This document shows, piece by piece, positions 14,384-60,529 of a stretch of DNA of 64,000 nucleotides. The translations under genes were made by a program, and so were the position numbers. Origin of the DNA: Escherichia coli (lineage in GTDB: Bacteria; Pseudomonadota; Gammaproteobacteria; Enterobacterales; Enterobacteriaceae). Location of the stretch: the NCBI RefSeq assembly GCF_003790525.1, contig NZ_CP033635.1. One strand, 5' to 3'. Position 1 is the first letter of the stretch. Each line of letters starts with the position of its first letter. Under the pieces are notes generated by a model, which was not told where the DNA came from, did no database searches, and worked only from the letters and a program-made list of their open reading frames with translations.

Positions 14384-14649
14384 GCTGGTCGATCACTGGA
14401 AGAGGAAGACGCGGAGTTTACGCTGCTTGTTAGAAAATAAACAGACAGCGAAATCAAAAGCGCCACGAATAATCAAAATGCCATTTCACTGTTGCTGATT
14501 GGCTGCTGACGCTGCTGAAATGAAATTGCTGATAACGGATTTTCCCATCAGCAATTAGGAAAAATGACAAAAAATTGTGCAGCACATCAAACTTTTGCTC
14601 ATTAGTTTGCGGCTTTCCTTGCGTGCTGAAACAGAAGTATTATGCTTTC

Positions 14650-14736
14650 TTGAAACGTTTCAGCGCGATCTTGTCTTTAACCCTAAGCCAGGTTGGCGCT
14701 TTTTTTCTCATAGAGGCTGAATCGTTTCAATTCAGC
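14650..14736. promoter_or_regulatory. fruBKA promoter region with two Cra (FruR) operator-like palindromes
   Basis: TGAAACGTTTCA at 14651-14662 and GCTGAATCGTTTCAATTCAGC at 14716-14736, directly upstream of the fruB SD and ATG. Confidence 0.7.
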
Positions 14737-14750
14737 AAGAGAGGAGAACT

Positions 14751-16819: not shown

Positions 16820-16835
16820 CAGCAGGAGAGGCATA

Positions 16836-18527
16836 ATGAAAACGCTGCTGATTATTGACGCTAATCTCGGTCAGGCACGCGCCTATATGGCGAAGACCCT
16901 GCTGGGCGCGGCGGCGCGAAAAGCAAAACTGGAAATCATCGACAATCCGAACGACGCAGAAATGGCGATTGTTCTCGGTGATTCCATCCCGAATGACAGC
17001 GCGCTGAACGGTAAAAATGTCTGGCTGGGCGATATTTCCCGGGCAGTTGCGCACCCTGAGCTGTTCCTGAGTGAAGCCAAAGGCCATGCGAAACCTTACA
17101 CTGCGCCGGTCGCTGCGACAGCACCGGTTGCCGCCAGCGGTCCGAAACGCGTAGTTGCGGTGACTGCTTGCCCGACTGGCGTAGCACACACCTTTATGGC
17201 GGCTGAAGCCATTGAAACCGAAGCGAAAAAACGTGGCTGGTGGGTGAAAGTTGAAACCCGTGGTTCTGTTGGCGCGGGTAATGCAATCACCCCTGAAGAA
17301 GTCGCAGCAGCGGATCTGGTGATTGTGGCGGCAGATATCGAAGTGGATCTGGCGAAATTTGCTGGTAAACCGATGTATCGCACCTCTACCGGTCTGGCGC
17401 TGAAGAAAACTGCGCAGGAACTGGATAAAGCGGTTGCTGAAGCAACGCCGTATGAACCAGCGGGCAAAGCTCAAACAGCGACCACTGAAGGTAAGAAAGA
17501 GAGTGCAGGCGCTTACCGTCACTTGCTGACGGGCGTCTCTTACATGCTGCCGATGGTCGTTGCAGGTGGTCTGTGTATCGCGCTTTCTTTTGCTTTTGGT
17601 ATCGAAGCGTTTAAAGAGCCGGGTACGTTGGCTGCGGCGCTGATGCAGATTGGTGGTGGTTCAGCCTTTGCGTTGATGGTGCCGGTACTGGCAGGTTATA
17701 TTGCCTTTTCCATTGCCGATCGTCCGGGTCTCACGCCGGGTCTGATTGGCGGTATGCTGGCGGTCAGCACCGGTTCTGGCTTCATTGGCGGTATTATTGC
17801 GGGCTTCCTGGCTGGTTACATTGCGAAGTTAATCAGTACGCAATTGAAACTGCCACAGAGTATGGAGGCGCTGAAACCGATTCTGATCATTCCGCTAATT
17901 TCCAGTCTGGTGGTCGGTCTGGCGATGATCTACCTGATCGGTAAACCGGTTGCTGGCATTCTCGAAGGGTTGACTCACTGGCTGCAGACCATGGGGACTG
18001 CGAATGCGGTTCTGCTGGGGGCGATCCTCGGTGGCATGATGTGTACTGACATGGGCGGTCCGGTAAACAAAGCAGCGTACGCATTCGGTGTGGGTCTGCT
18101 GAGTACTCAAACCTATGGCCCGATGGCGGCGATTATGGCGGCAGGTATGGTGCCACCGCTGGCAATGGGCCTGGCAACAATGGTGGCGCGTCGCAAATTC
18201 GACAAGGCGCAGCAGGAAGGGGGCAAAGCTGCTCTGGTACTGGGACTGTGCTTTATTTCGGAAGGTGCAATTCCGTTTGCTGCCCGTGATCCGATGCGTG
18301 TGCTGCCGTGCTGTATCGTGGGTGGGGCGCTGACTGGCGCAATCTCAATGGCGATTGGTGCGAAACTGATGGCACCGCACGGTGGTCTGTTTGTTCTGCT
18401 GATCCCTGGCGCGATTACGCCGGTATTGGGTTACCTGGTAGCCATTATTGCCGGTACGCTGGTGGCGGGGTTGGCCTATGCCTTCCTGAAACGTCCGGAA
18501 GTGGACGCAGTAGCGAAAGCAGCGTAA
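16836..18527 (+). CDS. fruA: fructose PTS IIB'BC component
   Basis: ORF track 563 aa; duplicated IIB domain plus IIC membrane domain. Confidence 0.95.
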   Translation: MKTLLIIDANLGQARAYMAKTLLGAAARKAKLEIIDNPNDAEMAIVLGDSIPNDSALNGKNVWLGDISRAVAHPELFLSEAKGHAKPYTAPVAATAPVAASGPKRVVAVTACPTGVAHTFMAAEAIETEAKKRGWWVKVETRGSVGAGNAITPEEVAAADLVIVAADIEVDLAKFAGKPMYRTSTGLALKKTAQELDKAVAEATPYEPAGKAQTATTEGKKESAGAYRHLLTGVSYMLPMVVAGGLCIALSFAFGIEAFKEPGTLAAALMQIGGGSAFALMVPVLAGYIAFSIADRPGLTPGLIGGMLAVSTGSGFIGGIIAGFLAGYIAKLISTQLKLPQSMEALKPILIIPLISSLVVGLAMIYLIGKPVAGILEGLTHWLQTMGTANAVLLGAILGGMMCTDMGGPVNKAAYAFGVGLLSTQTYGPMAAIMAAGMVPPLAMGLATMVARRKFDKAQQEGGKAALVLGLCFISEGAIPFAARDPMRVLPCCIVGGALTGAISMAIGAKLMAPHGGLFVLLIPGAITPVLGYLVAIIAGTLVAGLAYAFLKRPEVDAVAKAA

Positions 18528-18681
18528 TAAAAGGTGTGTTACAGGGCAGAAATTTCCTGCCCTGTAACATTTGATGAGCGCAAAGGGAATGACCGGTTTG
18601 TGAATGTAATTTTATGAATTTAAATGGTTTTATCTTTTAGTGGAAACCTGAAACTTTCATCAAACACTAAGGTTATTTCCT

Positions 18682-18712
18682 CAAGGGCAGATTAATTTCT
18701 GCCCTTTTTTAG
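18682..18712 (+). terminator. rho-independent terminator downstream of fruA
   Basis: aagggcagattaatttctgcccttttttag: stem followed by a T-run. Confidence 0.6.
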
Positions 18713-18950
18713 TGTTCCTGTTCTGTGCATCCCGTCACAAATTCCCCGTTTTTATAATTCAGGCATTTAATCGCGTTTTGTGAGCCTGCTCAAATCTGCC
18801 CATTTTGCCTCTCTGGCGGTAATTTACTTTACGTAAAACATGCATACTATGAGCACATGTTTAAATATGAACACATGTTTAAACCGTCTTTGCAGTATCA
18901 ATATTCTTGTGGATTGACAGGGTTGGTAATTTTTTACCAGAGGACGTGCT

Positions 18951-19892
18951 ATGCGCGAAAAGGATTATGTCGTAATTATAGGTTCGGCGAATATTGATGT
19001 CGCCGGATATTCACATGAATCATTAAATTATGCGGATTCAAATCCAGGTAAAATAAAATTTACGCCTGGTGGGGTAGGGCGCAATATTGCACAAAACCTG
19101 GCGTTGCTGGGTAATAAAGCCTGGCTACTGAGCGCCGTAGGCAGTGATTTTTATGGCCAATCGCTGCTAACGCAAACCAATCAATCTGGCGTTTATGTCG
19201 ATAAATGCCTGATTGTGCCGGGAGAAAATACGTCGAGCTATTTATCATTACTCGATAATACCGGTGAAATGCTGGTTGCTATAAATGACATGAATATTAG
19301 CAACGCTATTACAGCTGAATATCTCGCACAGCACCGTGAATTTATTCAGAGGGCAAAGGTCATTGTCGCGGACTGTAATATCAGTGAAGAGGCACTGGCA
19401 TGGATTCTGGATAATGCCGCCAACGTACCCGTATTTGTCGATCCGGTTTCAGCGTGGAAATGTGTCAAAGTGCGCGACCGTCTAAATCAAATCCACACTC
19501 TCAAGCCAAACCGCCTTGAAGCGGAAACCCTGAGTGGGATTGCGCTGTCAGGGCGTGAAGATGTGGCAAAGGTTGCCGCCTGGTTCCATCAACATGGCCT
19601 GAACCGACTGGTATTGAGCATGGGCGGCGACGGCGTTTATTACAGTGATATCAGCGGTGAAAGTGGTTGGTCTGCGCCGATCAAAACCAATGTCATTAAT
19701 GTTACCGGAGCGGGCGATGCCATGATGGCGGGACTTGCTTCGTGTTGGGTAGACGGAATGCCGTTTGCCGAATCTGTTCGTTTCGCACAGGGATGTTCGT
19801 CAATGGCGCTCTCCTGTGAATACACCAATAACCCCGATTTATCGATTGCCAACGTTATATCGTTAGTGGAGAACGTAGAATGTCTGAATTAA
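18951..19892 (+). CDS. psuK: pseudouridine kinase (PfkB family)
   Basis: ORF track 313 aa; GAGD ribokinase motif; operon with psuG and psuT. Confidence 0.85.
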   Translation: MREKDYVVIIGSANIDVAGYSHESLNYADSNPGKIKFTPGGVGRNIAQNLALLGNKAWLLSAVGSDFYGQSLLTQTNQSGVYVDKCLIVPGENTSSYLSLLDNTGEMLVAINDMNISNAITAEYLAQHREFIQRAKVIVADCNISEEALAWILDNAANVPVFVDPVSAWKCVKVRDRLNQIHTLKPNRLEAETLSGIALSGREDVAKVAAWFHQHGLNRLVLSMGGDGVYYSDISGESGWSAPIKTNVINVTGAGDAMMAGLASCWVDGMPFAESVRFAQGCSSMALSCEYTNNPDLSIANVISLVENVECLN

Positions 19893-20818
19893 AAATTTCC
19901 CCTGAATTATTACAAATCTCCCCGGAAGTGCAGGACGCTTTAAAAAACAAAAAACCGGTTGTGGCGCTGGAATCGACTATTATTTCTCACGGGATGCCGT
20001 TCCCACAAAATGCCCAGACCGCAATTGAAGTTGAAGAAACTATTCGTAAACAGGGCGCTGTACCTGCCACTATCGCCATTATTGGCGGCGTGATGAAAGT
20101 GGGTTTAAGCAAAGAAGAAATTGAATTGCTGGGTCGCGAAGGGCATAACGTGACCAAAGTTAGTCGTCGCGATTTACCTTTTGTCGTTGCCGCCGGAAAA
20201 AATGGCGCAACCACTGTGGCTTCAACGATGATTATTGCGGCGCTTGCCGGAATTAAAGTATTTGCCACCGGGGGAATTGGTGGTGTGCATCGCGGGGCGG
20301 AACATACCTTCGATATTTCTGCCGATTTGCAAGAACTGGCAAATACTAATGTCACCGTTGTTTGTGCCGGTGCAAAATCTATTCTCGATTTAGGATTAAC
20401 AACAGAATATTTAGAAACCTTCGGTGTGCCGTTAATTGGCTATCAGACAAAAGCGCTGCCTGCGTTTTTCTGCCGTACCAGCCCATTTGAAGTTAGTATT
20501 CGCCTTGATAGTGCCACGGAAATCGCTCGTGCAATGGCGGTGAAATGGCAAAGCGGTCTGAACGGTGGCCTGGTGGTGGCAAATCCGATCCCGGAACAGT
20601 TTGCGATGCCGGAGGAATCTATCAATGCAGCCATAGATCAAGCCGTCGCCGAAGCCGAAGAGCAGGGCGTTATTGGTAAAGAAAGCACACCGTTCCTGCT
20701 GGCTCGTGTTGCTGAACTGACTGGCGGTGACAGCCTGAAATCCAACATCCAACTGGTGTTCAACAACGCCATTCTGGCGAGCGAAATTGCCAAAGAATAC
20801 CAGCGTCTCGCGGGTTAA
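19880..20818 (+). CDS. psuG: pseudouridine-5'-phosphate glycosidase
   Basis: ORF track 312 aa; IndA family. Confidence 0.85.
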   Translation: MSELKISPELLQISPEVQDALKNKKPVVALESTIISHGMPFPQNAQTAIEVEETIRKQGAVPATIAIIGGVMKVGLSKEEIELLGREGHNVTKVSRRDLPFVVAAGKNGATTVASTMIIAALAGIKVFATGGIGGVHRGAEHTFDISADLQELANTNVTVVCAGAKSILDLGLTTEYLETFGVPLIGYQTKALPAFFCRTSPFEVSIRLDSATEIARAMAVKWQSGLNGGLVVANPIPEQFAMPEESINAAIDQAVAEAEEQGVIGKESTPFLLARVAELTGGDSLKSNIQLVFNNAILASEIAKEYQRLAG

Positions 20819-22229: not shown

Positions 22230-22889
22230 TTACTGCATCATCCCGGAGAATTTATTCTCCGGGTCCATCTCCAGCGCCAGTCCTGACAACTGCTTTCTGT
22301 TTTTAATTAGATATCCTTTCTTGCTTTTAATTAATAAACCGTCGTGAATGAATTGCGCGAGAACATATAAAAGATGTCGATAAGAAACGCCTAAATACTC
22401 TGCCGCTTGCGTATGCTTTTCGTGATAAAGATCACCTTCTTGTGAGAGTAATATAAATGCTGCCAGGCGATTCACTAACGGAAATGATTGATTCTGAGTT
22501 AAAGAAACAATATTGCGATAATTTTTATGGCTTAAACTAACGCAGAGTTTTCGTAAAAATAGCGTGTCGTTTAATAACAGCGGACGGTAATGTTTCATGG
22601 GGAGTGCAAGGCACCAACACTCTTCAATCGCCTGCACCGCACGTGGTTCATGGTCTTTATCGATTAACTCAATCTCACCAATAAAACAGGGGGCGGCAAA
22701 GAAATCGATCAGCGACACGCGACCATTAGCAAGCGTGGCGTAAAGCCTGGCGCGGCCTCGCGTCAGGTAAAACAGCCATGACGGCTGTTGCCCTTCCTGC
22801 ACAATGTAGTCACGTGCTAAAAAATGAAACAGCCGTGCATCGGCTGAAACATCCGTTGAAAAGCAATCCTTAAACGCGGATTCACTCAT
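22230..22889 (-). CDS. yeiL: Crp/Fnr-family transcriptional regulator
   Basis: ORF 22230..22928 trimmed to the ATG at 22889 (MSESAFKD); cNMP-binding fold plus C-terminal HTH. Confidence 0.8.
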
Positions 22890-23057
22890 CAATTGCTGCT
22901 TAAGATCATTATTGTGGATTTCTTTCACGATATTTATCCGCTATGAGATTTCTCATATTTAGCATACGTACGCTGTTGTTAAGATTCAATCATCGGCCCG
23001 GTCGAATTTTCTTTGCTGTAGAAAAAATAACGCAACTGGAAACAGAGGAAATAAACA

Positions 23058-23999
23058 ATGGAAAAGAGAAAAATTATTCTGGATTGTGATCCGGGTCATG
23101 ATGATGCTATTGCAATGATGATGGCAGCGAAACATCCGGCGATTGATTTATTAGGTATCACCATTGTAGCGGGTAATCAGACGCTTGATAAAACATTAAT
23201 TAATGGCCTGAATGTTTGCCAGAAACTGGAGATTAATGTTCCGGTTTATGCGGGGATGCCACAACCCATTATGCGGCAACAAATCGTTGCCGATAATATT
23301 CACGGTGAAACCGGACTGGATGGCCCGGTATTCGAGCCGCTGACCCGCCAGGCAGAAAGCACTCATGCGGTGAAATATATCATCGATACCCTGATGGCAA
23401 GCGATGGCGATATCACTCTGGTGCCGGTTGGTCCGCTTTCAAATATCGCGGTGGCAATGCGTATGCAGCCCGCGATCCTGCCAAAAATCCGTGAAATTGT
23501 ACTGATGGGCGGCGCTTATGGTACTGGCAACTTCACGCCATCTGCCGAGTTCAACATCTTTGCGGACCCGGAAGCGGCGCGAGTGGTGTTCACCTCCGGC
23601 GTTCCATTAGTGATGATGGGCCTCGATCTCACCAACCAGACCGTTTGCACCCCGGACGTGATTGCTAGGATGGAAAGGGCAGGCGGCCCCGCCGGAGAGC
23701 TGTTCAGCGACATCATGAACTTCACTCTGAAAACGCAGTTCGAAAACTACGGTCTGGCTGGCGGCCCGGTACATGACGCCACCTGTATCGGTTATCTGAT
23801 TAACCCCGATGGCATTAAAACCCAGGAGATGTACGTCGAAGTGGATGTTAACAGTGGCCCTTGCTATGGGCGTACCGTCTGCGACGAGCTGGGCGTTCTT
23901 GGCAAGCCCGCCAATACCAAAGTCGGCATCACTATTGATACCGACTGGTTCTGGGGATTAGTCGAAGAGTGCGTGCGCGGCTACATCAAAACCCATTAA
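23058..23999 (+). CDS. rihB: pyrimidine-specific ribonucleoside hydrolase
   Basis: ORF track 313 aa; DCDPGHDD nucleoside hydrolase signature at the N-terminus. Confidence 0.9.
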
Positions 24000-24098
24000 G
24001 TGTTGATAACAAGCCGGGACAGTATCGCAAGATGCAGGCCCGGCGATTTCTGATGGGCAGAAAGCCGTCGCCCAAAATGACATGAAGAGATAATAACT

Positions 24099-25349
24099 AT
24101 GGATGTCATGAGAAGTGTTCTGGGAATGGTGGTATTGCTGGCAATTGCATTTTTGCTGTCAGTAAACAAGAAGAGGATCAGCCTGCGTACCGTTGGCGCG
24201 GCGTTAGTGTTACAGGTCGTGATTGGCGGCATTATGCTTTGGTTACCGCCAGGGCGTTGGGTCGCTGAAAAAGTCGCTTTTGGCGTCCATAAAGTGATGG
24301 CGTACAGCGACGCGGGTAGCGCATTTATCTTCGGTTCGCTGGTCGGGCCGAAAATGGACACGCTGTTTGATGGTGCAGGATTTATCTTTGGTTTCAGAGT
24401 ATTACCGGCAATTATCTTCGTCACCGCGCTGGTGAGTATTCTCTACTACATCGGTGTGATGGGGATCTTAATTCGCATTCTCGGCGGTATCTTCCAGAAA
24501 GCATTAAATATCAGCAAGATCGAGTCATTCGTCGCGGTCACTACCATTTTCCTCGGGCAAAACGAAATTCCGGCAATCGTCAAACCCTTTATCGATCGGC
24601 TGAATCGCAATGAATTATTTACAGCGATTTGTAGTGGCATGGCCTCGATTGCTGGTTCGACAATGATTGGTTACGCCGCACTGGGCGTACCTGTGGAATA
24701 TTTGCTGGCGGCATCGTTAATGGCGATCCCAGGCGGGATCTTGTTTGCCCGCCTGTTAAGCCCGGCTACGGAATCTTCGCAGGTTTCTTTTAATAACCTC
24801 TCTTTCACCGAAACACCGCCAAAAAGTATTATTGAGGCCGCTGCGACAGGGGCAATGACCGGGCTGAAAATCGCTGCGGGTGTGGCAACAGTGGTGATGG
24901 CATTTGTTGCCATCATTGCGTTAATTAACGGTATTATCGGCGGCGTTGGCGGCTGGTTTGGTTTTGAGCAAGCCTCGCTGGAGTCCATTTTAGGTTATCT
25001 GCTGGCCCCGCTGGCGTGGGTGATGGGGGTTGACTGGAGTGATGCAAATCTTGCCGGGAGTTTGATTGGGCAGAAGTTGGCGATCAATGAATTTGTCGCT
25101 TACCTCAATTTCTCACCTTATCTGCAAACAGCTGGCACGCTCGATGCTAAAACCGTGGCGATTATTTCCTTCGCGTTGTGCGGTTTCGCTAACTTTGGTT
25201 CTATCGGGGTAGTGGTTGGGGCATTTTCTGCGGTTGCGCCACACCGCGCGCCGGAAATCGCCCAGCTTGGTTTACGCGCGCTGGCGGCGGCGACACTTTC
25301 TAACCTGATGAGTGCCACCATTGCAGGATTCTTTATTGGCTTAGCGTAG
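24099..25349 (+). CDS. nupX: NupC-family nucleoside permease
   Basis: ORF track 416 aa; near-identical in length and sequence pattern to psuT. Confidence 0.85.
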   Translation: MDVMRSVLGMVVLLAIAFLLSVNKKRISLRTVGAALVLQVVIGGIMLWLPPGRWVAEKVAFGVHKVMAYSDAGSAFIFGSLVGPKMDTLFDGAGFIFGFRVLPAIIFVTALVSILYYIGVMGILIRILGGIFQKALNISKIESFVAVTTIFLGQNEIPAIVKPFIDRLNRNELFTAICSGMASIAGSTMIGYAALGVPVEYLLAASLMAIPGGILFARLLSPATESSQVSFNNLSFTETPPKSIIEAAATGAMTGLKIAAGVATVVMAFVAIIALINGIIGGVGGWFGFEQASLESILGYLLAPLAWVMGVDWSDANLAGSLIGQKLAINEFVAYLNFSPYLQTAGTLDAKTVAIISFALCGFANFGSIGVVVGAFSAVAPHRAPEIAQLGLRALAAATLSNLMSATIAGFFIGLA

Positions 25350-33444: not shown

Positions 33445-34317
<873 letters not shown>

Positions 34318-34537
34318 TCATACCGTTAATTCATTGTGTCGTGAGTAACTTTCACTTCCGTATTTACATAACCGTGTTTTAACATTACACCTTTGTAAGG
34401 CAGCGGCAATTACAACAATTATCGCGGTGAATACTGGATTATGTGTGCCGCCTCACGCACAATAATCAGGCTGCTAATCAGCTTAATAACTTTGCCCCAC
34501 GCAGGGCAGAGGCGTCACACCTGCAGGAGAAAAATAA

Positions 34538-35206
34538 ATGCCATCACTCAGTAAAGAAGCGGCCCTGGTTCATGAAGCGCTGGTTGCGCGAGGACTGGAA
34601 ACACCGCTGCGCCCGCCCGTGCATGAAATGGATAACGAAACGCGCAAAAGCCTTATCGCCGGTCATATGACGGAAATCATGCAGTTGCTGAATCTCGACC
34701 TGGCTGATGACAGTTTGATGGAAACGCCGCATCGTATTGCCAAAATGTATGTCGATGAAATTTTCTCCGGTCTGGATTACGCCAATTTCCCGAAAATTAC
34801 CCTTATTGAAAACAAAATGAAGGTCGATGAGATGGTTACGGTGCGCGATATCACTCTGACCAGTACCTGTGAACACCATTTTGTTACCATTGATGGCAAA
34901 GCGACGGTGGCTTATATCCCGAAAGATTCGGTGATCGGTCTGTCAAAAATTAACCGCATCGTGCAGTTCTTTGCCCAGCGTCCGCAGGTGCAGGAACGTC
35001 TGACCCAGCAAATTCTCATTGCGCTACAAACGCTGCTGGGCACCAATAACGTGGCTGTCTCTATCGACGCGGTGCATTACTGCGTGAAAGCGCGTGGCAT
35101 CCGCGACGCAACCAGTGCCACAACAACGACCTCTCTTGGTGGATTGTTCAAATCCAGTCAGAATACGCGCCACGAGTTTCTGCGCGCTGTGCGTCATCAC
35201 AACTGA
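34538..35206 (+). CDS. folE: GTP cyclohydrolase I
   Basis: ORF track 222 aa; product recognised as FolE. Confidence 0.95.
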
Positions 35207-35222
35207 TTAAAAGGCAGGAACC

Positions 35223-36380
35223 ATGGAGCGCAACGTCACGCTCGATTTTGTTCGCGGCGTCGCCATTCTGGGGATCCTGCTATTAAACATCAGCGCCTTT
35301 GGGCTACCAAAGGCGGCTTATCTCAATCCCGCCTGGTACGGCGCTATTACGTCGCAGGATGCATGGACCTGGGCATTTCTCGATCTCATCGGCCAGGTGA
35401 AATTCCTCACGCTTTTTGCTCTGCTGTTTGGTGCGGGCCTGCAAATGTTGCTGCCCCGTGGCAGACGCTGGATCCAGTCGCGGTTAACGCTGTTAGTCTT
35501 GCTGGGCTTTATTCACGGTTTATTGTTCTGGGACGGCGATATTCTGCTGGCTTACGGGCTGGTGGGCTTAATCTGCTGGCGGCTGGTGCGCGATGCGCCA
35601 TCGGTAAAAAGCCTGTTTAATACAGGCGTCATGCTTTATCTGGTGGGGCTTGGCGTTTTGCTGTTATTGGGGCTGATTTCCGACAGCCAGACCAGCCGCG
35701 CCTGGACGCCGGATGCATCGGCTATTTTGTATGAAAAATACTGGAAGCTTCACGGCGGCGTTGAAGCGATCAGTAATCGTGCCGATGGTGTTGGCAACAG
35801 TTTACTGGCACTGGGCGCACAGTATGGCTGGCAACTGGCAGGGATGATGCTCATTGGTGCCGCATTGATGCGCAGCGGCTGGCTGAAAGGGCAGTTCAGC
35901 TTACGTCACTATCGTCGTACTGGTTTTGTGCTGGTGGCGATTGGGGTGACCATTAACCTTCCTGCCATCGCCCTGCAATGGCAGCTGGACTGGGCGTATC
36001 GCTGGTGTGCATTCTTACTTCAAATGCCGCGGGAACTGAGTGCGCCGTTTCAGGCGATTGGCTATGCGTCGCTGTTTTATGGCTTCTGGCCGCAATTAAG
36101 CCGCTTTAAGCTGGTGCTGGCAATCGCCTGTGTCGGACGGATGGCACTGACCAACTATCTATTGCAAACGCTGATTTGTACCACGCTTTTTTACCACCTC
36201 GGTTTGTTTATGCTGTTTGACCGTCTGGAATTGCTGGCGTTTGTTATTCCGGTATGGCTGGCGAATATTCTCTTCTCTGTTATCTGGCTGCGTTACTTCC
36301 GCCAGGGGCCGGTGGAATGGCTCTGGCGTCAGTTAACTTTGCGTGCAGCTGGGCCGGCAAGATCTAAAACATCAAGATAA
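35223..36380 (+). CDS. yeiB: DUF418-family inner membrane protein
   Basis: ORF track 385 aa; polytopic membrane protein immediately after folE. Confidence 0.85.
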   Translation: MERNVTLDFVRGVAILGILLLNISAFGLPKAAYLNPAWYGAITSQDAWTWAFLDLIGQVKFLTLFALLFGAGLQMLLPRGRRWIQSRLTLLVLLGFIHGLLFWDGDILLAYGLVGLICWRLVRDAPSVKSLFNTGVMLYLVGLGVLLLLGLISDSQTSRAWTPDASAILYEKYWKLHGGVEAISNRADGVGNSLLALGAQYGWQLAGMMLIGAALMRSGWLKGQFSLRHYRRTGFVLVAIGVTINLPAIALQWQLDWAYRWCAFLLQMPRELSAPFQAIGYASLFYGFWPQLSRFKLVLAIACVGRMALTNYLLQTLICTTLFYHLGLFMLFDRLELLAFVIPVWLANILFSVIWLRYFRQGPVEWLWRQLTLRAAGPARSKTSR

Positions 36381-51045: not shown

Positions 51046-51470
51046 ATCCACCTCAATTAAAAATTGACCCTGTGAAAAATATGGTCGTTTTATAGGGTCG
51101 TCGTAAAAAAGTGACGACGGAAATAATGCGCGGCTATTTTAAAAACGAAGGCGAGTCATTCACCAGATAAATAAATCCAGTAAATTTGATTTAGGGCAAC
51201 AGCGGGTTGCCCCATATAGTCATTTGTCTGATTGACAGTGTAGTGCAAGCAAAAGATTTAATCCTTTAGGCGTAATAAAAAATAATTTATCATGCTAATT
51301 ATTTGATTTTGTTGTTTTTGCAGGCTTATCAGCAAGAGGGAGTATAACGCGATTATTCGCTCATTTTTCAGACATTTGCCATGCTTAAATGTGATGTCAT
51401 CACGTATTAGCATGGCCTTTCCCGTTATACTGCCAGCGTAAAGGATAAGTCACATATTTCTGGAGGGGAT

Positions 51471-53129
51471 ATGATTCTTGAGCGCGTTGAAATTGTGGGT
51501 TTTCGCGGTATCAACCGTTTGTCGTTGATGCTGGAACAAAACAACGTCCTGATTGGGGAGAACGCGTGGGGTAAATCCAGCTTGCTGGACGCCTTAACCC
51601 TGCTGCTATCGCCAGAATCAGATCTCTACCATTTTGAGCGCGACGATTTCTGGTTCCCGCCGGGAGATATCAACGGACGGGAACATCATTTGCATATTAT
51701 TTTGACCTTCCGCGAATCGCTGCCAGGCCGACATCGGGTACGCCGCTATCGGCCACTGGAAGCGTGCTGGACGCCATGCACCGATGGCTATCACCGTATT
51801 TTTTATCGTCTGGAAGGGGAGAGTGCGGAAGACGGCAGCGTGATGACACTCCGCAGTTTTCTCGATAAAGACGGACATCCGATTGATGTCGAGGATATTA
51901 ACGATCAGGCACGCCATCTGGTGCGTTTAATGCCGGTGCTGCGCTTGCGTGATGCCCGTTTTATGCGCCGTATTCGTAACGGCACGGTGCCAAATGTCCC
52001 TAATGTGGAAGTCACCGCGCGCCAGCTCGATTTCCTCGCCCGTGAGTTATCCTCACATCCGCAAAATCTCTCTGATGGGCAGATTCGTCAGGGACTTTCC
52101 GCAATGGTACAGCTGCTTGAGCATTATTTCTCTGAGCAGGGGGCCGGACAGGCGCGATATCGTTTAATGCGGCGGCGAGCCAGCAATGAGCAACGAAGCT
52201 GGCGCTATCTGGATATCATCAACCGGATGATTGACCGACCTGGAGGGCGCTCGTATCGGGTTATTTTGCTCGGCCTGTTTGCTACTTTGTTGCAGGCAAA
52301 AGGCACATTGCGACTGGATAAAGACGCCCGTCCATTGTTGCTGATCGAAGATCCAGAAACCCGTTTACACCCCATTATGCTTTCAGTTGCCTGGCATCTG
52401 TTGAATCTTCTGCCATTGCAGCGCATCGCTACTACCAACTCGGGAGAGTTGCTTTCGTTAACGCCGGTAGAGCATGTTTGCCGACTGGTACGTGAGTCCT
52501 CGCGCGTTGCCGCCTGGCGTCTGGGGCCGAGTGGTTTGAGTACCGAAGATAGCCGACGCATCTCTTTCCACATTCGTTTTAATCGTCCATCATCGCTGTT
52601 TGCACGCTGCTGGCTGCTGGTGGAAGGGGAAACAGAAACCTGGGTTATCAACGAACTGGCGCGCCAGTGTGGACACCATTTCGATGCCGAAGGGATTAAG
52701 GTCATTGAATTTGCCCAGTCCGGGCTAAAACCACTGGTGAAATTTGCCCGGCGAATGGGGATTGAATGGCATGTACTGGTCGATGGCGATGAAGCAGGGA
52801 AGAAATATGCCGCTACGGTACGCAGCCTGTTGAATAACGATCGGGAAGCCGAACGAGAACATTTAACGGCGTTACCGGCGCTGGATATGGAACATTTTAT
52901 GTATCGCCAGGGATTTTCCGATGTGTTCCACCGCGTGGCGCAAATCCCGGAAAATGTACCGATGAATCTGCGCAAAATTATCTCGAAAGCGATCCATCGC
53001 TCTTCCAAACCCGATCTTGCCATTGAAGTGGCAATGGAGGCCGGACGTCGTGGTGTGGATTCCGTACCGACGCTGCTGAAAAAAATGTTCTCACGCGTGC
53101 TGTGGCTGGCGCGCGGTCGCGCGGATTAA
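51471..53129 (+). CDS. ybjD: OLD-family ATP-dependent endonuclease (AAA ATPase plus Toprim), DUF2813
   Basis: ORF track 552 aa; N-terminal P-loop (GENAWGKSS); position between aqpZ and ybjX as in K-12. Confidence 0.85.
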   Translation: MILERVEIVGFRGINRLSLMLEQNNVLIGENAWGKSSLLDALTLLLSPESDLYHFERDDFWFPPGDINGREHHLHIILTFRESLPGRHRVRRYRPLEACWTPCTDGYHRIFYRLEGESAEDGSVMTLRSFLDKDGHPIDVEDINDQARHLVRLMPVLRLRDARFMRRIRNGTVPNVPNVEVTARQLDFLARELSSHPQNLSDGQIRQGLSAMVQLLEHYFSEQGAGQARYRLMRRRASNEQRSWRYLDIINRMIDRPGGRSYRVILLGLFATLLQAKGTLRLDKDARPLLLIEDPETRLHPIMLSVAWHLLNLLPLQRIATTNSGELLSLTPVEHVCRLVRESSRVAAWRLGPSGLSTEDSRRISFHIRFNRPSSLFARCWLLVEGETETWVINELARQCGHHFDAEGIKVIEFAQSGLKPLVKFARRMGIEWHVLVDGDEAGKKYAATVRSLLNNDREAEREHLTALPALDMEHFMYRQGFSDVFHRVAQIPENVPMNLRKIISKAIHRSSKPDLAIEVAMEAGRRGVDSVPTLLKKMFSRVLWLARGRAD

Positions 53130-54118
53130 CCGCGAAACATCGTGGCCATTTGTGGCTGAATAGCGTCGAGCATCTCATAGCGCCGACGGTATTCAGCCCG
53201 TTTTTTACTGGCGATTTCGGCAATCTCTTTTCGTGCTATCTGTGCTGGAAGGCGGTAATGGCGTTCAGCATCACATACGCCGCCAACCGATTCCCAGAAA
53301 GCGTTGTAATCAGCGTGGATCTTGCCTTCTTTATCGCGATAACGCAGGCTGCGGTAAATATGCGTTTCATTGCTGACGGCAATAATCTGCTCTACCTGCA
53401 AACGTTGGGCAAACAGACAGGCCGCTTCCATCACGAGGCGTTTGGGAAATAGCCCGTGGCAGGCTTTCGTCGCATTCTGGATTTCCTGATGTGGGATTTC
53501 CCATTTTGCGCCTTGCAGTCCGCCAATAAACATTGTTCTTTTCCCCTGATATTCACACAGGGTAAACGTGATCTCTGCCAGAGGAATACCTTCGCTGTTG
53601 CGAAACAGGATTGTGCTGTCACCTTCTTTATCCATTGAGATCATCATGGTCAGCTCAAGTGTGAACTGCTCGCCGTTTTTGCCTTCCAGCTTCGCCAGTT
53701 GCAGCCCGGGGGTATTCAAATATAAGCTGAATTCTTCCGCCGACATACACCCGCGGAGTAACGCATAATGGTAACGTAACGCCTCCAGCAATTGCTTACG
53801 GCTAAGATTCGCCGCAAGGTAAGGGCGATGCAGACGCACAGGCAGTCGCGGCTGGCGCGTTAACAACACATTGAGATTAGGCCAGTGGGAAAGTTCGTTC
53901 ATCCACTCAACGCTTAAACGCGGCATAATCAACGAGCGCAGCAAAAATTTCTGGCGAAAACTACGGCGATGCCAGAATTTACCCGGCCGACACTGTCCAC
54001 GTGCCAGACTAAGAAAAAGTGACAGGCTGCTGAGAGATTCAGATGGCGTAAAGGTCCGTTCAGTTAGCTGCGACATATTCATGAAATCAATGGTTATACA
54101 TGACGTCGATTTCACCAT
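53126..54118 (-). CDS. ybjX: VirK-like DUF535 protein
   Basis: ORF track 330 aa; between ybjD and macA as in K-12. Confidence 0.8.
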   Translation of the reverse strand: MVKSTSCITIDFMNMSQLTERTFTPSESLSSLSLFLSLARGQCRPGKFWHRRSFRQKFLLRSLIMPRLSVEWMNELSHWPNLNVLLTRQPRLPVRLHRPYLAANLSRKQLLEALRYHYALLRGCMSAEEFSLYLNTPGLQLAKLEGKNGEQFTLELTMMISMDKEGDSTILFRNSEGIPLAEITFTLCEYQGKRTMFIGGLQGAKWEIPHQEIQNATKACHGLFPKRLVMEAACLFAQRLQVEQIIAVSNETHIYRSLRYRDKEGKIHADYNAFWESVGGVCDAERHYRLPAQIARKEIAEIASKKRAEYRRRYEMLDAIQPQMATMFRG

Positions 54119-54232
54119 TGCGTATCTTAACCAAACATCAATAGTGTGATTACTAACGTAAATTTTAGGGTTTTGTTGATATTTCGTTGAAGTTAATGAC
54201 CCGGATTGGCATATGGAGTATTCAGAATATTT

Positions 54233-55348
54233 ATGAAAAAGCGGAAAACCGTGAAGAAGCGTTACGTTATTGCGCTGGTGATAGTCATCGCCGGACTGAT
54301 TACGTTATGGAGAATTCTTAACGCACCCGTTCCGACTTATCAGACGCTGATTGTGCGCCCCGGTGATTTACAGCAAAGCGTGCTGGCGACCGGAAAGCTG
54401 GACGCGCTGCGTAAGGTTGACGTGGGCGCGCAGGTCAGCGGTCAGTTGAAAACGCTGTCGGTGGCGATTGGCGATAAAGTAAAAAAAGACCAGCTTTTAG
54501 GGGTTATTGATCCTGAACAGGCTGAAAACCAGATCAAGGAGGTGGAAGCAACGCTGATGGAGCTACGCGCGCAGCGGCAGCAGGCGGAAGCGGAGCTGAA
54601 ACTGGCGCGGGTGACGTATTCCCGTCAGCAACGTCTTGCACAAACGCAAGCGGTTTCACAGCAGGATCTCGATACCGCCGCGACGGAGATGGCTGTGAAA
54701 CAGGCGCAAATTGGCACCATTGACGCGCAAATCAAGCGCAATCAGGCCTCACTCGATACGGCTAAAACCAATCTCGATTACACCCGCATCGTTGCCCCGA
54801 TGGCCGGGGAAGTCACGCAAATCACCACTCTGCAAGGCCAGACGGTGATTGCCGCACAACAAGCACCGAACATTCTGACGCTGGCAGATATGAGCACCAT
54901 GCTGGTAAAAGCGCAGGTTTCTGAAGCGGATGTAATCCACCTGAAGCCGGGGCAAAAAGCCTGGTTTACGGTACTAGGCGATCCGCTGACGCGCTATGAG
55001 GGGCAAATCAAGGATGTGCTACCGACGCCGGAAAAGGTTAACGACGCTATTTTCTATTACGCCCGTTTTGAAGTCCCCAACCCCAATGGTTTGCTGCGGC
55101 TGGATATGACCGCGCAAGTGCATATTCAGCTCACCGATGTGAAAAATGTGCTGACGATCCCTCTGTTGGCGTTAGGCGATCCGGTTGGCGATAATCGTTA
55201 TAAAGTCAAATTGTTGCGTAATGGTGAAACACGCGAGCGTGAAGTGACGATTGGCGCACGTAACGATACCGATGTTGAGATTGTCAAAGGGCTGGAAGCG
55301 GGCGATGAAGTGGTGATTGGTGAGGCCAAACCAGGAGCTGCACAATGA
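54233..55348 (+). CDS. macA: macrolide efflux periplasmic adaptor (membrane fusion protein)
   Basis: ORF 54206..55348 trimmed to the ATG at 54233 ([12 protein letters not shown]); HlyD-family coiled coil. Confidence 0.9.
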
Positions 55349-57291
55349 CGCCTTTGCTCGAATTAAAGGATATTCGTCGCAGCTATCCTGCCGGTGATGA
55401 GCAGGTTGAGGTGCTGAAGGGCATCAGCCTCGATATTTATGCCGGTGAGATGGTAGCGATTGTTGGCGCTTCGGGTTCCGGCAAATCGACCCTGATGAAT
55501 ATTCTCGGCTGCCTGGATAAGGCCACCAGCGGCACCTATCGCGTCGCCGGTCAGGATGTTGCCACGCTGGACGCCGATGCGCTGGCGCAACTGCGCCGCG
55601 AGCATTTCGGCTTTATTTTCCAGCGTTACCATTTGCTTTCGCATTTAACCGCCGAGCAGAACGTTGAAGTTCCCGCCGTCTATGCTGGTCTTGAGCGGAA
55701 ACAGCGGCTGCTTCGCGCCCAGGAGTTGCTGCAACGACTGGGGCTGGAAGACCGTACAGAGTATTATCCGGCACAGCTTTCGGGTGGTCAGCAACAGCGT
55801 GTCAGCATCGCGCGGGCATTGATGAACGGCGGTCAGGTAATTCTTGCCGATGAACCAACCGGTGCACTGGACAGCCATTCTGGCGAAGAGGTGATGGCGA
55901 TCCTGCATCAGCTGCGCGATCGCGGGCATACGGTGATTATCGTCACCCACGATCCGCAGGTTGCTGCTCAGGCCGAGCGGGTGATCGAAATTCGTGACGG
56001 CGAAATTGTGCACAATCCTCCCGCCGTTGAAAAAGTGAATGCTACTGGCGGGACGGAACCTGTTGTCAACACGGCGTCTGGCTGGCGGCAGTTTGTCAGC
56101 GGTTTTAACGAGGCGCTGACGATGGCATGGCGGGCGCTGGCAGCGAATAAAATGCGTACTTTACTGACCATGCTGGGGATTATTATCGGTATTGCGTCGG
56201 TGGTTTCCATTGTCGTGGTGGGCGACGCCGCCAAACAAATGGTGCTGGCGGATATTCGTTCTATTGGTACGAATACTATTGATGTCTATCCCGGGAAAGA
56301 TTATGGCGATGACGATCCGCAATATCAGCAGGCGCTGAAGTACGACGACTTAATCGCCATCCAAAAACAACCGTGGGTCGCCTCAGCCACACCTGCCGTC
56401 TCGCAAAACCTGCGCCTGCGTTATAACAATGTTGATGTGGCTGCCAGTGCCAATGGCGTGAGCGGCGATTATTTTAATGTCTATGGCATGACCTTCAGTG
56501 AAGGGAACACCTTTAATCAGGAGCAGCTGAACGGTCGTGCGCAGGTGGTGGTTCTCGACAGTAATACTCGCCGCCAGCTTTTCCCCCATAAAGCAGATGT
56601 GGTTGGCGAGGTGATTCTGGTCGGCAATATGCCCGCCAGAGTCATTGGTGTGGCGGAAGAAAAACAGTCGATGTTTGGTAGCAGTAAAGTGCTGCGTGTC
56701 TGGCTACCTTACAGCACGATGTCCGGGCGAGTTATGGGCCAGTCGTGGCTGAACTCCATTACTGTCAGGGTGAAAGAAGGATTTGACAGCGCCGAGGCGG
56801 AACAGCAACTCACGCGTTTACTTTCACTGCGCCACGGTAAGAAGGATTTCTTTACCTGGAACATGGATGGTGTCTTGAAAACCGTTGAAAAGACCACACG
56901 TACTTTACAACTGTTTCTGACGCTGGTGGCGGTGATTTCGCTGGTGGTGGGCGGTATTGGTGTAATGAATATTATGCTGGTGTCAGTGACCGAGCGGACG
57001 CGGGAAATTGGCATTCGCATGGCTGTAGGTGCGCGAGCAAGCGATGTTTTGCAACAGTTCCTGATCGAAGCCGTACTGGTTTGCCTGGTCGGTGGCGCGT
57101 TGGGAATAACACTGTCACTGTTAATTGCTTTCACCTTGCAGCTTTTCTTACCCGGCTGGGAGATTGGTTTTTCACCGTTGGCACTGCTGCTGGCGTTTCT
57201 CTGCTCGACGGTCACCGGGATTTTATTTGGCTGGTTACCCGCACGAAATGCGGCACGACTGGATCCAGTAGATGCTCTGGCACGAGAGTAA
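55345..57291 (+). CDS. macB: macrolide ABC exporter, fused ATPase-permease
   Basis: ORF track 648 aa; N-terminal ABC ATPase (GASGSGKST) plus FtsX-like permease domain. Confidence 0.95.
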
Positions 57292-57301
57292 TTTTTGAGA
57301 T

Positions 57302-57332
57302 AAAAATGCCAGCCGATCGGGCTGGCATTTTG
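57302..57332. terminator. bidirectional hairpin terminator between macB and cspD
   Basis: aaaaatgccagccgatcgggctggcattttgcc: stem with an A-run on one side and a T-run on the other. Confidence 0.65.
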
Positions 57333-57363
57333 CCTTTAGGATGTACACAATGAGACAGAAGAG

Positions 57364-57588
57364 CTATGCGACTGCCGCTTCTACTTCGACGGGCACAATA
57401 ACACTGGCGTGATTGCCTTTTGGCCCCTGGTGGACATCAAACTGAACGGATTGTCCAGCTTTTAGCGTTCTGTAACCATCCATCTGAATGGTGGAATAAT
57501 GAGCGAAAATATCTTCGCCGCCGCCTTCAGGGCAGATGAAACCAAACCCTTTGGCATTGTTGAACCACTTAACAGTACCCTTTTCCAT
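57364..57588 (-). CDS. cspD: stationary-phase cold-shock-domain protein CspD
   Basis: ORF 57364..57618 trimmed to the ATG at 57588 (MEKGTVKWFNNAKGFGFI), giving 74 aa. Confidence 0.9.
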   Translation of the reverse strand: MEKGTVKWFNNAKGFGFICPEGGGEDIFAHYSTIQMDGYRTLKAGQSVQFDVHQGPKGNHASVIVPVEVEAAVA

Positions 57589-57808
57589 GCTTCGACATCC
57601 TTCGCAAATCTTATACAAGTAAGATGGAATAAACCGGGGTCAGAGAGGGGGCTGTTCAAAACCTCGCCAACTCTAGAAATACAATTTAGAGAATTAGGGC
57701 GAGCCGTCAAGCATTTGACAGGGGACAGGGGGCAGGTATGAATCAAAAATTTGAAGCAGTTAACGCTATTGACAGGAATGTGACAGATGTCGCTGATGCC
57801 AACGATAG

Positions 57809-57920
57809 ATGATAGTTATTTATCATCTAGTGTTCGCGGGTGTTCGTGGTAGTGTTTTGTGTGCATTCATCGCTATGATTATAAAGGAAAATTTTGTTTT
57901 ACTTGTTCGCTCTTGTTCGT
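57809..57920. promoter_or_regulatory. integrase-proximal repeat cluster (possible att arm-type sites)
   Basis: palindrome GATGATAGTTATTTATCATC (57809-57828) followed by four TGTTCG repeats at 57831, 57841, 57904 and 57914; lies 70-180 bp upstream of int. Confidence 0.35.
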
Positions 57921-57992
57921 CACGGTTTGCCCTTGTACGATGCACGGTGTAGTCAATGGTGTAGTTAATTTTGATGACCGGAAACGCGAAAC

Positions 57993-59231
57993 ATGAGCAG
58001 CGCAATTCATAGACTTAGCGACACTCTTTTACGAAAATTAAGCGGATCACCAACCACAAAAAACGCCTTTTTTAATGACGGTGGCAATCTTAGCGTAAGA
58101 CATTCCACCAGCGGCCTGTTAACCTGGTATTTCACTTACAGGGCCGGAACTGGCAGGCAGGTATCACCGGAACGCCTGAGACTGGGCAACTATCCCGATC
58201 TGAGCCTGAAAGCAGCCAGGGAAAAAGCGGCACAGTGTCGCGCCTGGCTGGCGGAGGGGAAAAATCCACGCCATGAGCTTAATCACACAGTGCAGGAAGC
58301 GTTAGCCCCCGTGACGGTTAAGGACGCGCTCACTTACTGGCTTGAGTCGTATGCGAAGGAAAAGCGCACTGACCACGAATCACTGAAAAGCCGTATCAAT
58401 AAGCACATAATCAGCCAGATTGGTGCTATGCCGCTGGATAAATGCGAGCTACGCCACTGGCTGGCCTGTTTTGACCAGCTTGCTAAGCGTAATCCGGTAT
58501 CAGCCGGCTTTTTGTTGCAGGTATGCAAACAGGCGCTTAAGTACTGCCGTAAACGTCGCTACGCCGTCAGTAACGTTCTTGATGATATGGTCGTAGGTGA
58601 TGTGGGAAAAAAAGCAGAAATAAGCGAGCGAGTGCTAACAAACAAGGAGCTTGGCGAGCTACTCCGCGCACTGGATGAAAAAATTTTCCCGCCGTACTAC
58701 AGCGCTTTAATTCGCCTTCTGATTGTCTTCGGATGCCGTACCACTGAGCTAAGACGCTCCGAGGTTCGGGAATGGGATTTTAAAGAAATGCTCTGGACTG
58801 TGCCGAAAGAACACAGCAAAACGAAGGTAGCAATATTCAGGCCAATACCGGAAGCGATCTTGCCGTTCGTCATGAAGCTGGTGGAGCAGAACAGGCACAC
58901 GGGCTTATTGCTTGGAGAACTGAAAGGGCAATCATCCGTAGCAGAGTACGGAAGAACGGCACACAGACGCATTAATCAAGCCCCCTGGTCGTTGCACGAC
59001 ATCCGGCACACATTTACAACCATGCTGAACGATTTAGGCGTGGATCCGCATATTGTCGAACAGCTTACTGCCCACCAGATGCCAGGAATGCAACGCGTCT
59101 ATAACCACTCCCGTTATCTCGATGCAAAGCGTGACGCTCTTAATCTATGGGTAGACCGTCTCGAGCTTCTCCAGAACAATGATGAAAAAATCGTTGTTAT
59201 GACCCCGCGAATTTACCCCCAAAATTCTTGA
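57993..59231 (+). CDS. P4-type tyrosine integrase
   Basis: ORF track 412 aa; N-terminal DUF4102-like arm-binding region and C-terminal tyrosine recombinase motifs (HDIRHTF ... YNHSRY); not present at this locus in K-12. Confidence 0.85.
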   Translation: MSSAIHRLSDTLLRKLSGSPTTKNAFFNDGGNLSVRHSTSGLLTWYFTYRAGTGRQVSPERLRLGNYPDLSLKAAREKAAQCRAWLAEGKNPRHELNHTVQEALAPVTVKDALTYWLESYAKEKRTDHESLKSRINKHIISQIGAMPLDKCELRHWLACFDQLAKRNPVSAGFLLQVCKQALKYCRKRRYAVSNVLDDMVVGDVGKKAEISERVLTNKELGELLRALDEKIFPPYYSALIRLLIVFGCRTTELRRSEVREWDFKEMLWTVPKEHSKTKVAIFRPIPEAILPFVMKLVEQNRHTGLLLGELKGQSSVAEYGRTAHRRINQAPWSLHDIRHTFTTMLNDLGVDPHIVEQLTAHQMPGMQRVYNHSRYLDAKRDALNLWVDRLELLQNNDEKIVVMTPRIYPQNS

Positions 59232-59650
59232 CAAATTACGGCTGTTTTTTCTTTAAGAGATTACAGCCGTGAATAGATCTTAGAATATCGGGGAATATCT
59301 GCAAATATCTTCTCTTTATATGTGTCAACTATCGAAAAAAATTGAAATGTCTTCTTCTGAGTTCTTATTCTCTGTTTCTTGATTGTTCCAACATCTGATG
59401 GTTTATCTATTTGTTTTTAATGAGGTAATTCAGGTGACATGCCAAATGACGACATTTTTTGTTGCGTCGCTTAAAAACTCGTGACACGATTTTAAACACT
59501 AACGAGCTTCTACGAACCTTAGCGAACAAAGCCTTTAGCATGGTTGTGTTTTTAATTTAAGAGGTGAAAAAGAATCTAAGTAATATCCGATCTCATATAT
59601 CTACAGCTAAGAGAAAAGTTTATATACGTAATTTTTATGTAGGTTTTTGT

Positions 59651-59860
59651 ATGCGTGAAATAAATGAAGATCGCGTAATCCGTGAGGATGAATGTCGTAA
59701 GTTAACTGGAGTGTGTCGCACTACACGCTACGAACTGGAGAAAAAAGGGAGCTTTCCGTCTCGCCGTAATCTTGGTGGGCGTTCTGTAGGTTGGCTGCTG
59801 TCCGAGGTTATGGAATGGGTTAAAAGCCGGGATCGCATTAATTCAGGCAAGGCAGCGTAA
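59651..59860 (+). CDS. AlpA-family phage regulatory protein / excisionase-like HTH
   Basis: within ORF 59564..59860; C-terminal 69 aa match the AlpA pattern (KLTGVCRTTRYELEKKGSFP ... GGRSVGWLLSEVMEWV); alternative GTG start at 59564. Confidence 0.7.
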   Translation: MREINEDRVIREDECRKLTGVCRTTRYELEKKGSFPSRRNLGGRSVGWLLSEVMEWVKSRDRINSGKAA

Positions 59861-59998
59861 AGGGGAGTATATGACACATAAAACAAAGGCGACCGGGGGC
59901 GGTCGCCAATGGGAAAACACTAAACATAAGCCCGAACATCATAGCGATTTGCTGGCTGGTGGGCAATGTGTCCAGTGTGGTGGCTTGCTGGTGGATTG

Positions 59999-60190
59999 TC
60001 AGCCAGGTGGGCGGTTTTTGTTTGCTTTTAAGCGCCGAGGGTATTTCTCGACAAAAGGATCAAGGGCGAACTTATCAGGAACTTTAAGATTTTCAGTGCG
60101 GGTTAATGCCTTATTTATTTCCCTGCGGGTTTTCTCACGCTGGCGCATGATAATTGATAATGCTTTATTTTGTAGTTCCTGGTTATTCAT
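59999..60190 (-). CDS. hypothetical small protein (63 aa)
   Basis: within ORF 59999..60199; ATG at 60190 with AAGGTGA SD; basic/helical composition; convergent with alpA, separated by the hairpin ggcgaccgggggcggtcgcc at 59888-59907. Confidence 0.5.
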   Translation of the reverse strand: MNNQELQNKALSIIMRQREKTRREINKALTRTENLKVPDKFALDPFVEKYPRRLKANKNRPPG

Positions 60191-60247
60191 AATTATCACC
60201 TTTAAAACAATGCGCCGCAGTACCTCACACCACGGCGCTGATAGTGA

Positions 60248-60427
60248 TTATTCTGATTCTTTGGCCTTGCGGCGCTGGCGGTATTCAACTTCTCGCTTTA
60301 ATGCTGCTGTTACAAACTGCCCTGTACTTTCACCAGGCATTTTTACCGCCTCAACATTGTTCATAACTTCATGCGGAACCCTTGCCGCAACTGTTTGTGA
60401 TTTTGCGTTTACTGCTTTTGTCGCCAT
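60248..60427 (-). CDS. putative ribbon-helix-helix DNA-binding protein (59 aa)
   Basis: ATG at 60427, TAA at 60248; below the 60-aa cutoff of the ORF track; strand-helix-loop-helix pattern (TVAARVPHEVMNNVEAVKMPGESTGQFVTAALKRE); directly downstream of the palindromic operators. Confidence 0.5.
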   Translation of the reverse strand: MATKAVNAKSQTVAARVPHEVMNNVEAVKMPGESTGQFVTAALKREVEYRQRRKAKESE

Positions 60428-60477
60428 GTTGTGTACCCCTTACAAAAAACAAATGCAGTATGCAGGAAAAAAAATAA

Positions 60478-60529
60478 GTGTTCAACACTTGGCGTGTTTA
60501 ACACCTAGGCTTAAATTGGTGTTCAACAC
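60478..60529. promoter_or_regulatory. three palindromic operator-like sites GTGTT(c/t)AACAC
   Basis: gtgttcaacac at 60478-60488, gtgtttaacac at 60494-60504, gtgttcaacac at 60519-60529; in the divergent region upstream of the RHH gene. Confidence 0.6.

Follow-up and report, generated by a model that had tools for sequence, protein, structure and literature searches.

We found that the DNA running from position 57820 to the end of the window (the whole 64-kb stretch of E. coli sequence that was analysed) is very probably the left 6.2 kb of a PICI of about 10.6 kb, close to EcCIIHE3034, that was integrated by its own integrase at a non-tRNA attB site between cspD/yljB and clpS. The attachment site, the core and the element family have been known since 2018; the island belongs to an established family and occupies an established site. 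The novelty implied by an earlier note on this DNA therefore falls away, as both the site and the core are already entered in Table S1 of Fillol-Salom et al. 2018 (ISME J 12:2114, PMC6092414), and the discovery value is little because site, core and family had all been published. The finding is of use for annotation, as it means that an integrase beside cspD without a tRNA gene signals no assembly error, deletion or new integration mechanism. Our minor additions are the placement of the crossover relative to the yljB stop codon and clpS, an arm-repeat layout that parallels that of P4, and a probable correction to the published core of EcCIDI14.

The cspD-integrase junction and its attachment site

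The features around the junction are as follows. The cspD assignment comes from the list of open reading frames and from the cspD annotated in LH50-c, K-12, IHE3034 and TUM1886, and yljB was read directly from the sequence.

54206-55348: macA
55345-57291: macB
57364-57588, minus strand: cspD coding sequence, native chromosome
57589-57710, minus strand: cspD 5' leader and a promoter-like site, native chromosome untouched by the island
57738-57812, plus strand: yljB, an annotated small gene of 24 codons, intact
57798-57837: imperfect inverted repeat around the core (17-nt arms, 82% complementary, 6 nt apart)
57809-57819: att core ATGATAGTTAT, the attL crossover and left boundary of the island; only copy in the window
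57820-57992, plus strand: island P' arm (attL arm) and int upstream region
57830, 57840, 57903 and 57913, plus strand: four KTGTTCG motifs in two 10-bp-phased pairs
57946-57969, plus strand: tandem 12-bp repeat pair GGTGTAGTCAAT GGTGTAGTTAAT, 24 bp upstream of int
57993-59231, plus strand: tyrosine integrase of P4-type architecture, 412 aa

According to the sequence and the list of open reading frames, the gap between cspD and the integrase gene is 404 bp long (57589-57992), in agreement with the roughly 400 bp given earlier. The region upstream of cspD had been described as running into int. This is correct for the native part, 57589-57819, which comprises the cspD leader and yljB and has one mismatch to K-12 before the core, but the remainder, 57820-57992, is island DNA. 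When 57589-57826 was aligned to the K-12 cspD-clpS spacer, we found two mismatches (57728 and 57820) and no homology beyond. The leader at 57589-57710 is identical to K-12, the first mismatch being the one at 57728. In the alignment that had been suggested as a check, K-12 homology ended at 57819/57826, and SMS-3-5 homology ended at 57819/57820; the arm has no homology to K-12 or SMS-3-5 from 57820/57827 on, and 57820-57992 has zero mismatches to the TUM1886 island. No blastn match to K-12 clpS-clpA-serW DNA was obtained anywhere in the window.

The insertion leaves both cspD and yljB intact. The att core includes TGA (57810-57812), the stop codon of yljB, which is preserved after insertion; the yljB product, WP_001406719.1, is annotated identically in the occupied-site and empty-site genomes that we inspected. 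The cspD leader carries a promoter-like TTGACG-16-TAAATT at 57710-57683, which is a consensus match only. On the minus strand, cspD and its leader (57300-57693) also gave a sub-threshold Rfam match to the cspA leader (41.6 bits, gathering score 78). This cspA thermoregulator match probably reflects sequence similarity within the csp family and not a demonstrated thermosensor.

Attachment at a tRNA or tmRNA gene was rejected as an explanation of the junction. The earlier observation that 57,600-57,990 lacks tRNA-like sequence held up in each search: ARAGORN detected no tRNA or tmRNA across the whole 64-kb window, Rfam at E<=1 returned nothing tRNA-like in 52000-64000 (the cspA-leader-like match on cspD was the sole one), and the T-arm motif GGTTCGAATCC with up to 2 mismatches had zero occurrences in 57589-57992, its count across the window being that expected by chance. 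ARAGORN likewise found no complete tRNA in the 42-kb LH50-c locus. The junction has neither a tRNA or tmRNA gene nor a 3' fragment of one, as would be found at a tRNA-targeting island, and the att core lies in the yljB-clpS spacer.

The proposal of a non-tRNA attachment site between cspD and clpS was borne out by the second junction. As the last 4.4 kb or so of the island fall outside the window, its right junction and clpS-clpA were observed only in other genomes that have the same island. K-12 has one copy of ATGATAGTTAT, and LH50-c, IHE3034 and TUM1886 have two each, flanking the island at core-to-core distances of 10,470, 10,543 and 10,580 bp, respectively; this is the direct repeat that the earlier note had advised looking for at the distal end. 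In all three genomes clpS starts 92 bp beyond the second core and is followed by clpA, both intact. At the left junction the base left of the core is chromosomal and the base to its right is of island origin (T at 57820), and at the right junction the order is reversed. Because the core-flanking bases swap origin between the two junctions, the crossover is fixed inside the 11-bp core. Strand exchange is thereby placed in an 11-bp stretch of identity (57809-57819), which includes the yljB stop codon and is separated from the clpS start by 92 bp. An empty attB is present in K-12 and SMS-3-5, where a perfect 7-4-7 palindrome, ATGATAG-TTAT-CTATCAT, has the core at its centre. From its appearance, the inverted repeat around the core probably provides the core-type binding sites of the integrase.

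These results also bear on the position of clpS and clpA. The statement that clpS-clpA are missing from their K-12 position is right for the window, but in every comparable genome examined the two genes are displaced by about 10.6 kb to the right-hand att copy and are not lost. The insertion would thus have moved an intact clpS-clpA operon. Displacement of clpS-clpA to the far island boundary had been listed as grounds for refuting a non-tRNA attachment site; it is a prediction of that hypothesis and so does not refute it. The earlier note had also advised checking whether clpS-clpA-serW lie at the other end of the island. In the genomes inspected clpS-clpA do, and serW is displaced in LH50-c and TUM1886 by what appears to be a separate island that occupies the serW tRNA site. 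Another integrase gene comes after clpA in LH50-c (locus 33810-35590), TUM1886 (22520-24401) and SMS-3-5 (34540-36205), and in LH50-c and TUM1886 the K-12 homology ends 14-15 nt into the serW 3' end.

The insertion replaces all DNA more than 92 bp upstream of clpS-clpA with island DNA. A promoter-like TTGACG-16-CATAAT (10 of 12 matches) faces clpS at TUM1886 locus 19729-19756, 34 bp short of the right core. When attL and attR were scanned for promoters and terminators, the results were at or below shuffle expectation, so this site is no more than a lead towards an effect on clpS-clpA expression. The satellite might rewire the ClpS/ClpA N-degron system or yljB expression and so give its carrier a phenotype, and the palindromic attB might serve the host as a regulatory site that insertion destroys, but we regard these effects as unlikely.

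Population distribution and recent history

The distribution of the insertion was determined in 5,426 complete E. coli genomes. The site was uninterrupted in 5,057 of them and occupied in 6.7%. We detected the left junction (cspD with int) in 364 genomes and the right junction (island right end with clpS) in 365, so that 364-365 of the roughly 367 interrupted sites bear the junctions of this island. The exact island variant of the window was present in only 5 of the 5,426.

Comparison with two of these chromosomes revealed an unusually clean natural before-and-after pair. Positions 41000-57819 differ from the empty-site strain SMS-3-5 at 2 places in 16.8 kb, with divergence from 57820 on. The 6.2 kb of island in the window (57820-64000) has 0 mismatches to TUM1886, whereas the chromosomal flank of TUM1886 differs from window 52000-57808 (5.8 kb) at 86 positions, or 1.5%. 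Because the island is identical to that of TUM1886 while the flank is 1.5% divergent from TUM1886 and near-identical to SMS-3-5, the simplest reading of these alignments is that an SMS-3-5-like chromosome recently acquired the island horizontally, through site-specific insertion. The combination of an SMS-3-5-type flank with this island had zero occurrences in the complete-genome collection. The pair supports recent horizontal spread of the satellite.

Upstream of the island the window has a synteny break relative to K-12 (47567-51051), where dusC (47567-48580) is joined via an IS110-family transposase gene (48811-49836) to aqpZ (50350-51051). The dusC gene and those upstream of it match a preTA-cdd-dusC cluster that lies apart from aqpZ in TUM1886 and LH50-c, and a 97-bp piece of the lysO-aqpZ spacer is found at 48629-48725. 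SMS-3-5, whose site is empty, has an identical junction, and the dusC-IS110-aqpZ break therefore predates the island and is independent of it.

Island genes, predicted mobility and alternative readings

The island genes in the window that follow the integrase are listed below.

59651-59860, plus strand: AlpA/Vis-type helix-turn-helix regulator and excisionase (PHROG 2790 'excisionase and transcriptional regulator', E = 3.5e-17)
60248-60427, minus strand: YlcI/YnfO family small protein (NCBIfam NF041551, 59.7 bits, cut-off 30)
60426-61859, plus strand: 'Icd-like' open reading frame, 477 aa (RefSeq annotation), resembling known proteins at its two ends only
62056-62355, plus strand: DUF4222-family protein (PHROG 285, E = 3e-27; genome annotation)
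62352-64000, plus strand: replicase of the primase/helicase family, cut by the window end (PHROG 864 DNA primase, E = 7e-169)

The earlier identification of a P4-type integrase was correct as to architecture. The protein has the arm-binding N-terminal domain (Arm-DNA-bind_3, PF13356, residues 8-95, E = 4.6e-16) and the catalytic C-terminal domain (Phage_integrase, PF00589, residues 214-375, E = 3.8e-17) by which P4-type integrases are recognized, and belongs to PHROG 1 (E = 1e-67). Its identity to P4 Int is only 24% over the full length, with the catalytic residues R249, H335-x-x-R338, H361 and Y370 present in the alignment. PRK09692, the common enterobacterial P4-type model of NCBIfam, gave 42.7 bits against a cut-off of 434, and because this score is far under the cut-off we place the integrase on a distant branch of the P4-type architecture.

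Both att arms carry repeated motifs. In addition to the four KTGTTCG motifs of the left arm, three more occur in the opposite arm (TUM1886 locus 19662, 19672 and 19682), so that seven of the 12 matches in 24 kb are located in the two arms. The 12-bp repeat has two exact matches in the left arm and two in the other (TUM1886 locus 19695-19718), 72 bp before the right core, and its chance expectation with up to 1 mismatch is about 0.3 or fewer. The tandem 12-bp repeats upstream of int are probably arm-type integrase binding sites. In the mechanism that we propose, Int would bind the imperfect inverted repeat around the core together with the tandem 12-bp GGTGTAGTYAAT sites in both arms.

Of the remaining genes in the window, the AlpA protein is 45% identical to P4 orf88/Vis. 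The replicase is 39% identical to P4 alpha over alpha residues 326-762 only, its N-terminal part being different, and scored 108.3 bits with the P4-family primase C-terminal domain model TIGR01613 (cut-off 108.7). Probably the long 'Icd-like' frame is either an artefact of annotation or the product of small genes fused with non-coding DNA. It matches NCBIfam phage_ICD_like at residues 86-127, PHROG 6196 at residues 44-128 and PHROG 2512 at residues 355-476, and its middle (60810-61490) had zero PHROG matches on either strand, as had two antisense small open reading frames that overlap this middle and have an FPLE-x-FI motif in common. The frame lies within a longer open frame of 662 codons (59871-61859), three copies of a 20-nt repeat occur in its middle (60885, 61047 and 61272), and the EcCIIHE3034 counterpart of the region is shorter and divided into small genes.

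Beyond the replicase, the TUM1886 island encodes SSB, PerC, a ProQ/FinO-family protein, TerS and a final small open reading frame, all on the plus strand. TerS is of the Nu1 type, with 60-71% identity to the Nu1 proteins of phage 21 and its lambdoid relatives, and 204 bp upstream of terS there is an exact lambda cosN, GGGCGGCGACCT (TUM1886 locus 17538-18326, past the window end). terS is the sole head or packaging gene in this island. The TUM1886 satellite thus carries a complete lambda-style cos-Nu1 module, which points to lambdoid cos phages as helpers. No structured RNA was found by Rfam at E<=1 in TUM1886 locus 9000-20000, and PADLOC gave chance-level matches only for the ten island proteins and detected no defence system.

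These findings agree with what defines a PICI. The element is discrete, falls within 8-15 kb (with its left 6.2 kb in the window) and has a direct repeat and an empty site; it occupies a characteristic attachment site, where site and core equal the published EcCIIHE3034 and EcCI18098 entries; its int, alpA and primase-replication module all run rightward, on the plus strand; and past the window end, in TUM1886, it has a packaging-hijack module (terS and cosN) without a full structural and lysis gene set. A helper phage would switch on the AlpA regulator/excisionase, upon which the element would excise. The excised element may then replicate via its own replicase, similar to P4 alpha in the C-terminal part of the latter, and could be packaged from its own cos by its own Nu1-type TerS into the capsids of a lambdoid cos helper.

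We considered whether other readings account for the same data. One of them, the alternative offered by the earlier note, attributes the loss or relocation of clpS-clpA to a deletion or second rearrangement, with int abutting the cspD region for reasons unrelated to site-specific insertion. The absence of clpS-clpA from a window that ends before the island's right end fits this idea, as does the real synteny break with its IS110-family element 8-9 kb upstream. However, the break falls at a clean 11-bp core, of which every genome inspected has a second copy at the far end of the island with clpS-clpA intact beside it; the left and right junction counts match; and SMS-3-5 combines the same IS110 junction with an empty, intact cspD-yljB-clpS-clpA locus, which makes that rearrangement independent of the island. 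Such an event is unnecessary, as clpS-clpA directly follow the right core in LH50-c, IHE3034 and TUM1886, and we consider it barely credible. A P4-like satellite that relies on a P2-type helper is likewise very improbable as a reading of the element. The architecture of Int, the Vis/AlpA homologue, the resemblance of the replicase to the C-terminal two-thirds of alpha, the Icd-like segment and the attP arm-repeat layout all recall P4, but tblastn of the P4 Sid, Delta, Psu, cII, Gop, Beta, orf106, orf151 and cI proteins gave zero matches in the island, and Eps gave a 21-residue match at chance level only (E = 0.003). The sid, delta, psu and eps genes that mark P4-like satellites were absent from both the TUM1886 and the IHE3034 island, and on the absence of the P4 hallmark genes we rejected this assignment. 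Furthermore, the lambda-type cosN and the Nu1-type TerS point to lambdoid and not P2-type helpers, and Fillol-Salom et al. class the elements at cspD-clpS as PICIs, set apart from P4 (PMC6092414).

The island might instead be an immobile, cryptic remnant, once mobile and now fixed, that has lost excision and transfer. In favour of this, marked IHE3034 and 18098 islands showed zero transfer after mitomycin C induction of resident prophages (PMC6092414), one small island open reading frame is annotated as frameshifted, and a helper phage for the island has not been identified. On the other hand, the identity of the 6.2 kb to TUM1886 beside an adjacent chromosome that is 1.5% different indicates that the element has recently passed horizontally from one lineage to another; the open reading frames of int, alpA, the replicase and terS are intact, as are cosN and both att cores; and the site is occupied in a small fraction of genomes, with cargo that varies between the islands compared. 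We therefore judge a cryptic remnant to be improbable, and favour a PICI that was recently integrated by its own Int.

Relation to known satellites

Literature searches gave nothing relevant on integration at cspD-clpS in main texts; the record was located in the supplementary table of PMC6092414. There, EcCIIHE3034 and EcCI18098 are listed with cspD-clpS as att gene and with the same 11-bp core, ATGATAGTTAT, as the window island. EcCIIHE3034 is given as NC_017628.1, 920272-930825, 10.5 kb, and these coordinates coincide exactly with the two core copies that we had located independently. The same paper puts the number of PICI att sites in E. coli at 8, states that PICI att sites are not used by prophages, and in its Table S1 names none of the E. 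coli sites after a tRNA gene (PMC6092414). For this reason an integrase without a neighbouring tRNA is normal for PICIs.

EcCIIHE3034 is a close relative. It shares with the window island the position of int relative to yljB and the AlpA accession WP_001206975.1, and like the 18098 island it encodes a small terminase, TerS (PMC6092414). Compared with the window-type island it is 94% identical at the left end, 89% in the replication module and 97% at the right end. The two differ in that EcCIIHE3034 has major capsid and head-decoration genes (IHE3034 locus 8609-10011) where the window type has PerC and ProQ/FinO, and in that the window type alone has an extra segment, roughly 1.2 kb long, in its 'Icd-like' region. 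Cargo is thus exchanged between otherwise collinear islands at the cspD-clpS site.

EcCICFT073, an experimentally characterized cos-type PICI, has the same int-alpA-replication order, all rightward, and also carries PerC as an accessory gene. Its cos1 (PMC6092414 supplement) closely resembles the cosN context of the TUM1886 island, and it depends on the lambdoid helpers lambda and phi80 (PMC6092414). It differs from this island in its att site, ycfD-phoQ, with core GGACATATTT, and in having no TerS homologue (PMC6092414), whereas this island has a Nu1-type TerS.

The parallels with P4 comprise the domain architecture of Int, the Vis/AlpA homologue and a replicase that resembles alpha in its C-terminal region. 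P4 integrates at a leucine tRNA gene. Its GenBank record annotates a tandem 12-bp 'attP arm sequence repeat' in both arms, one pair lying just upstream of int as it does here, but the annotated attP core and arm-repeat sequences of P4 differ from those of this island.

The Int of EcCIDI14 is 77% identical to that of the window, and this element also has tandem GGTGTAGTTAAT arm repeats in both arms, at similar distances from its ends. The 'att site core' listed for it in Table S1, CGGTGTAGTTAATGGTGTAGTTAATT, appears to be the tandem 12-bp arm repeat (D i14 locus 5049-5072 and 15665-15688; NC_017652.1) instead of the crossover, for which a short repeat such as TTATAAAT is the probable true core; it is found near D i14 locus 4923 and 15754 inside a split ISEc45 transposase gene. 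EcCIDI14 differs from this island in its replication protein, which is annotated as a RepA-family helicase whereas that of this island belongs to the primase family, and in its target, an IS110-family transposase gene; it has no ATGATAGTTAT core. The same arm repeats at a different target fit a conserved recognition of arm sites combined with a changed core specificity.
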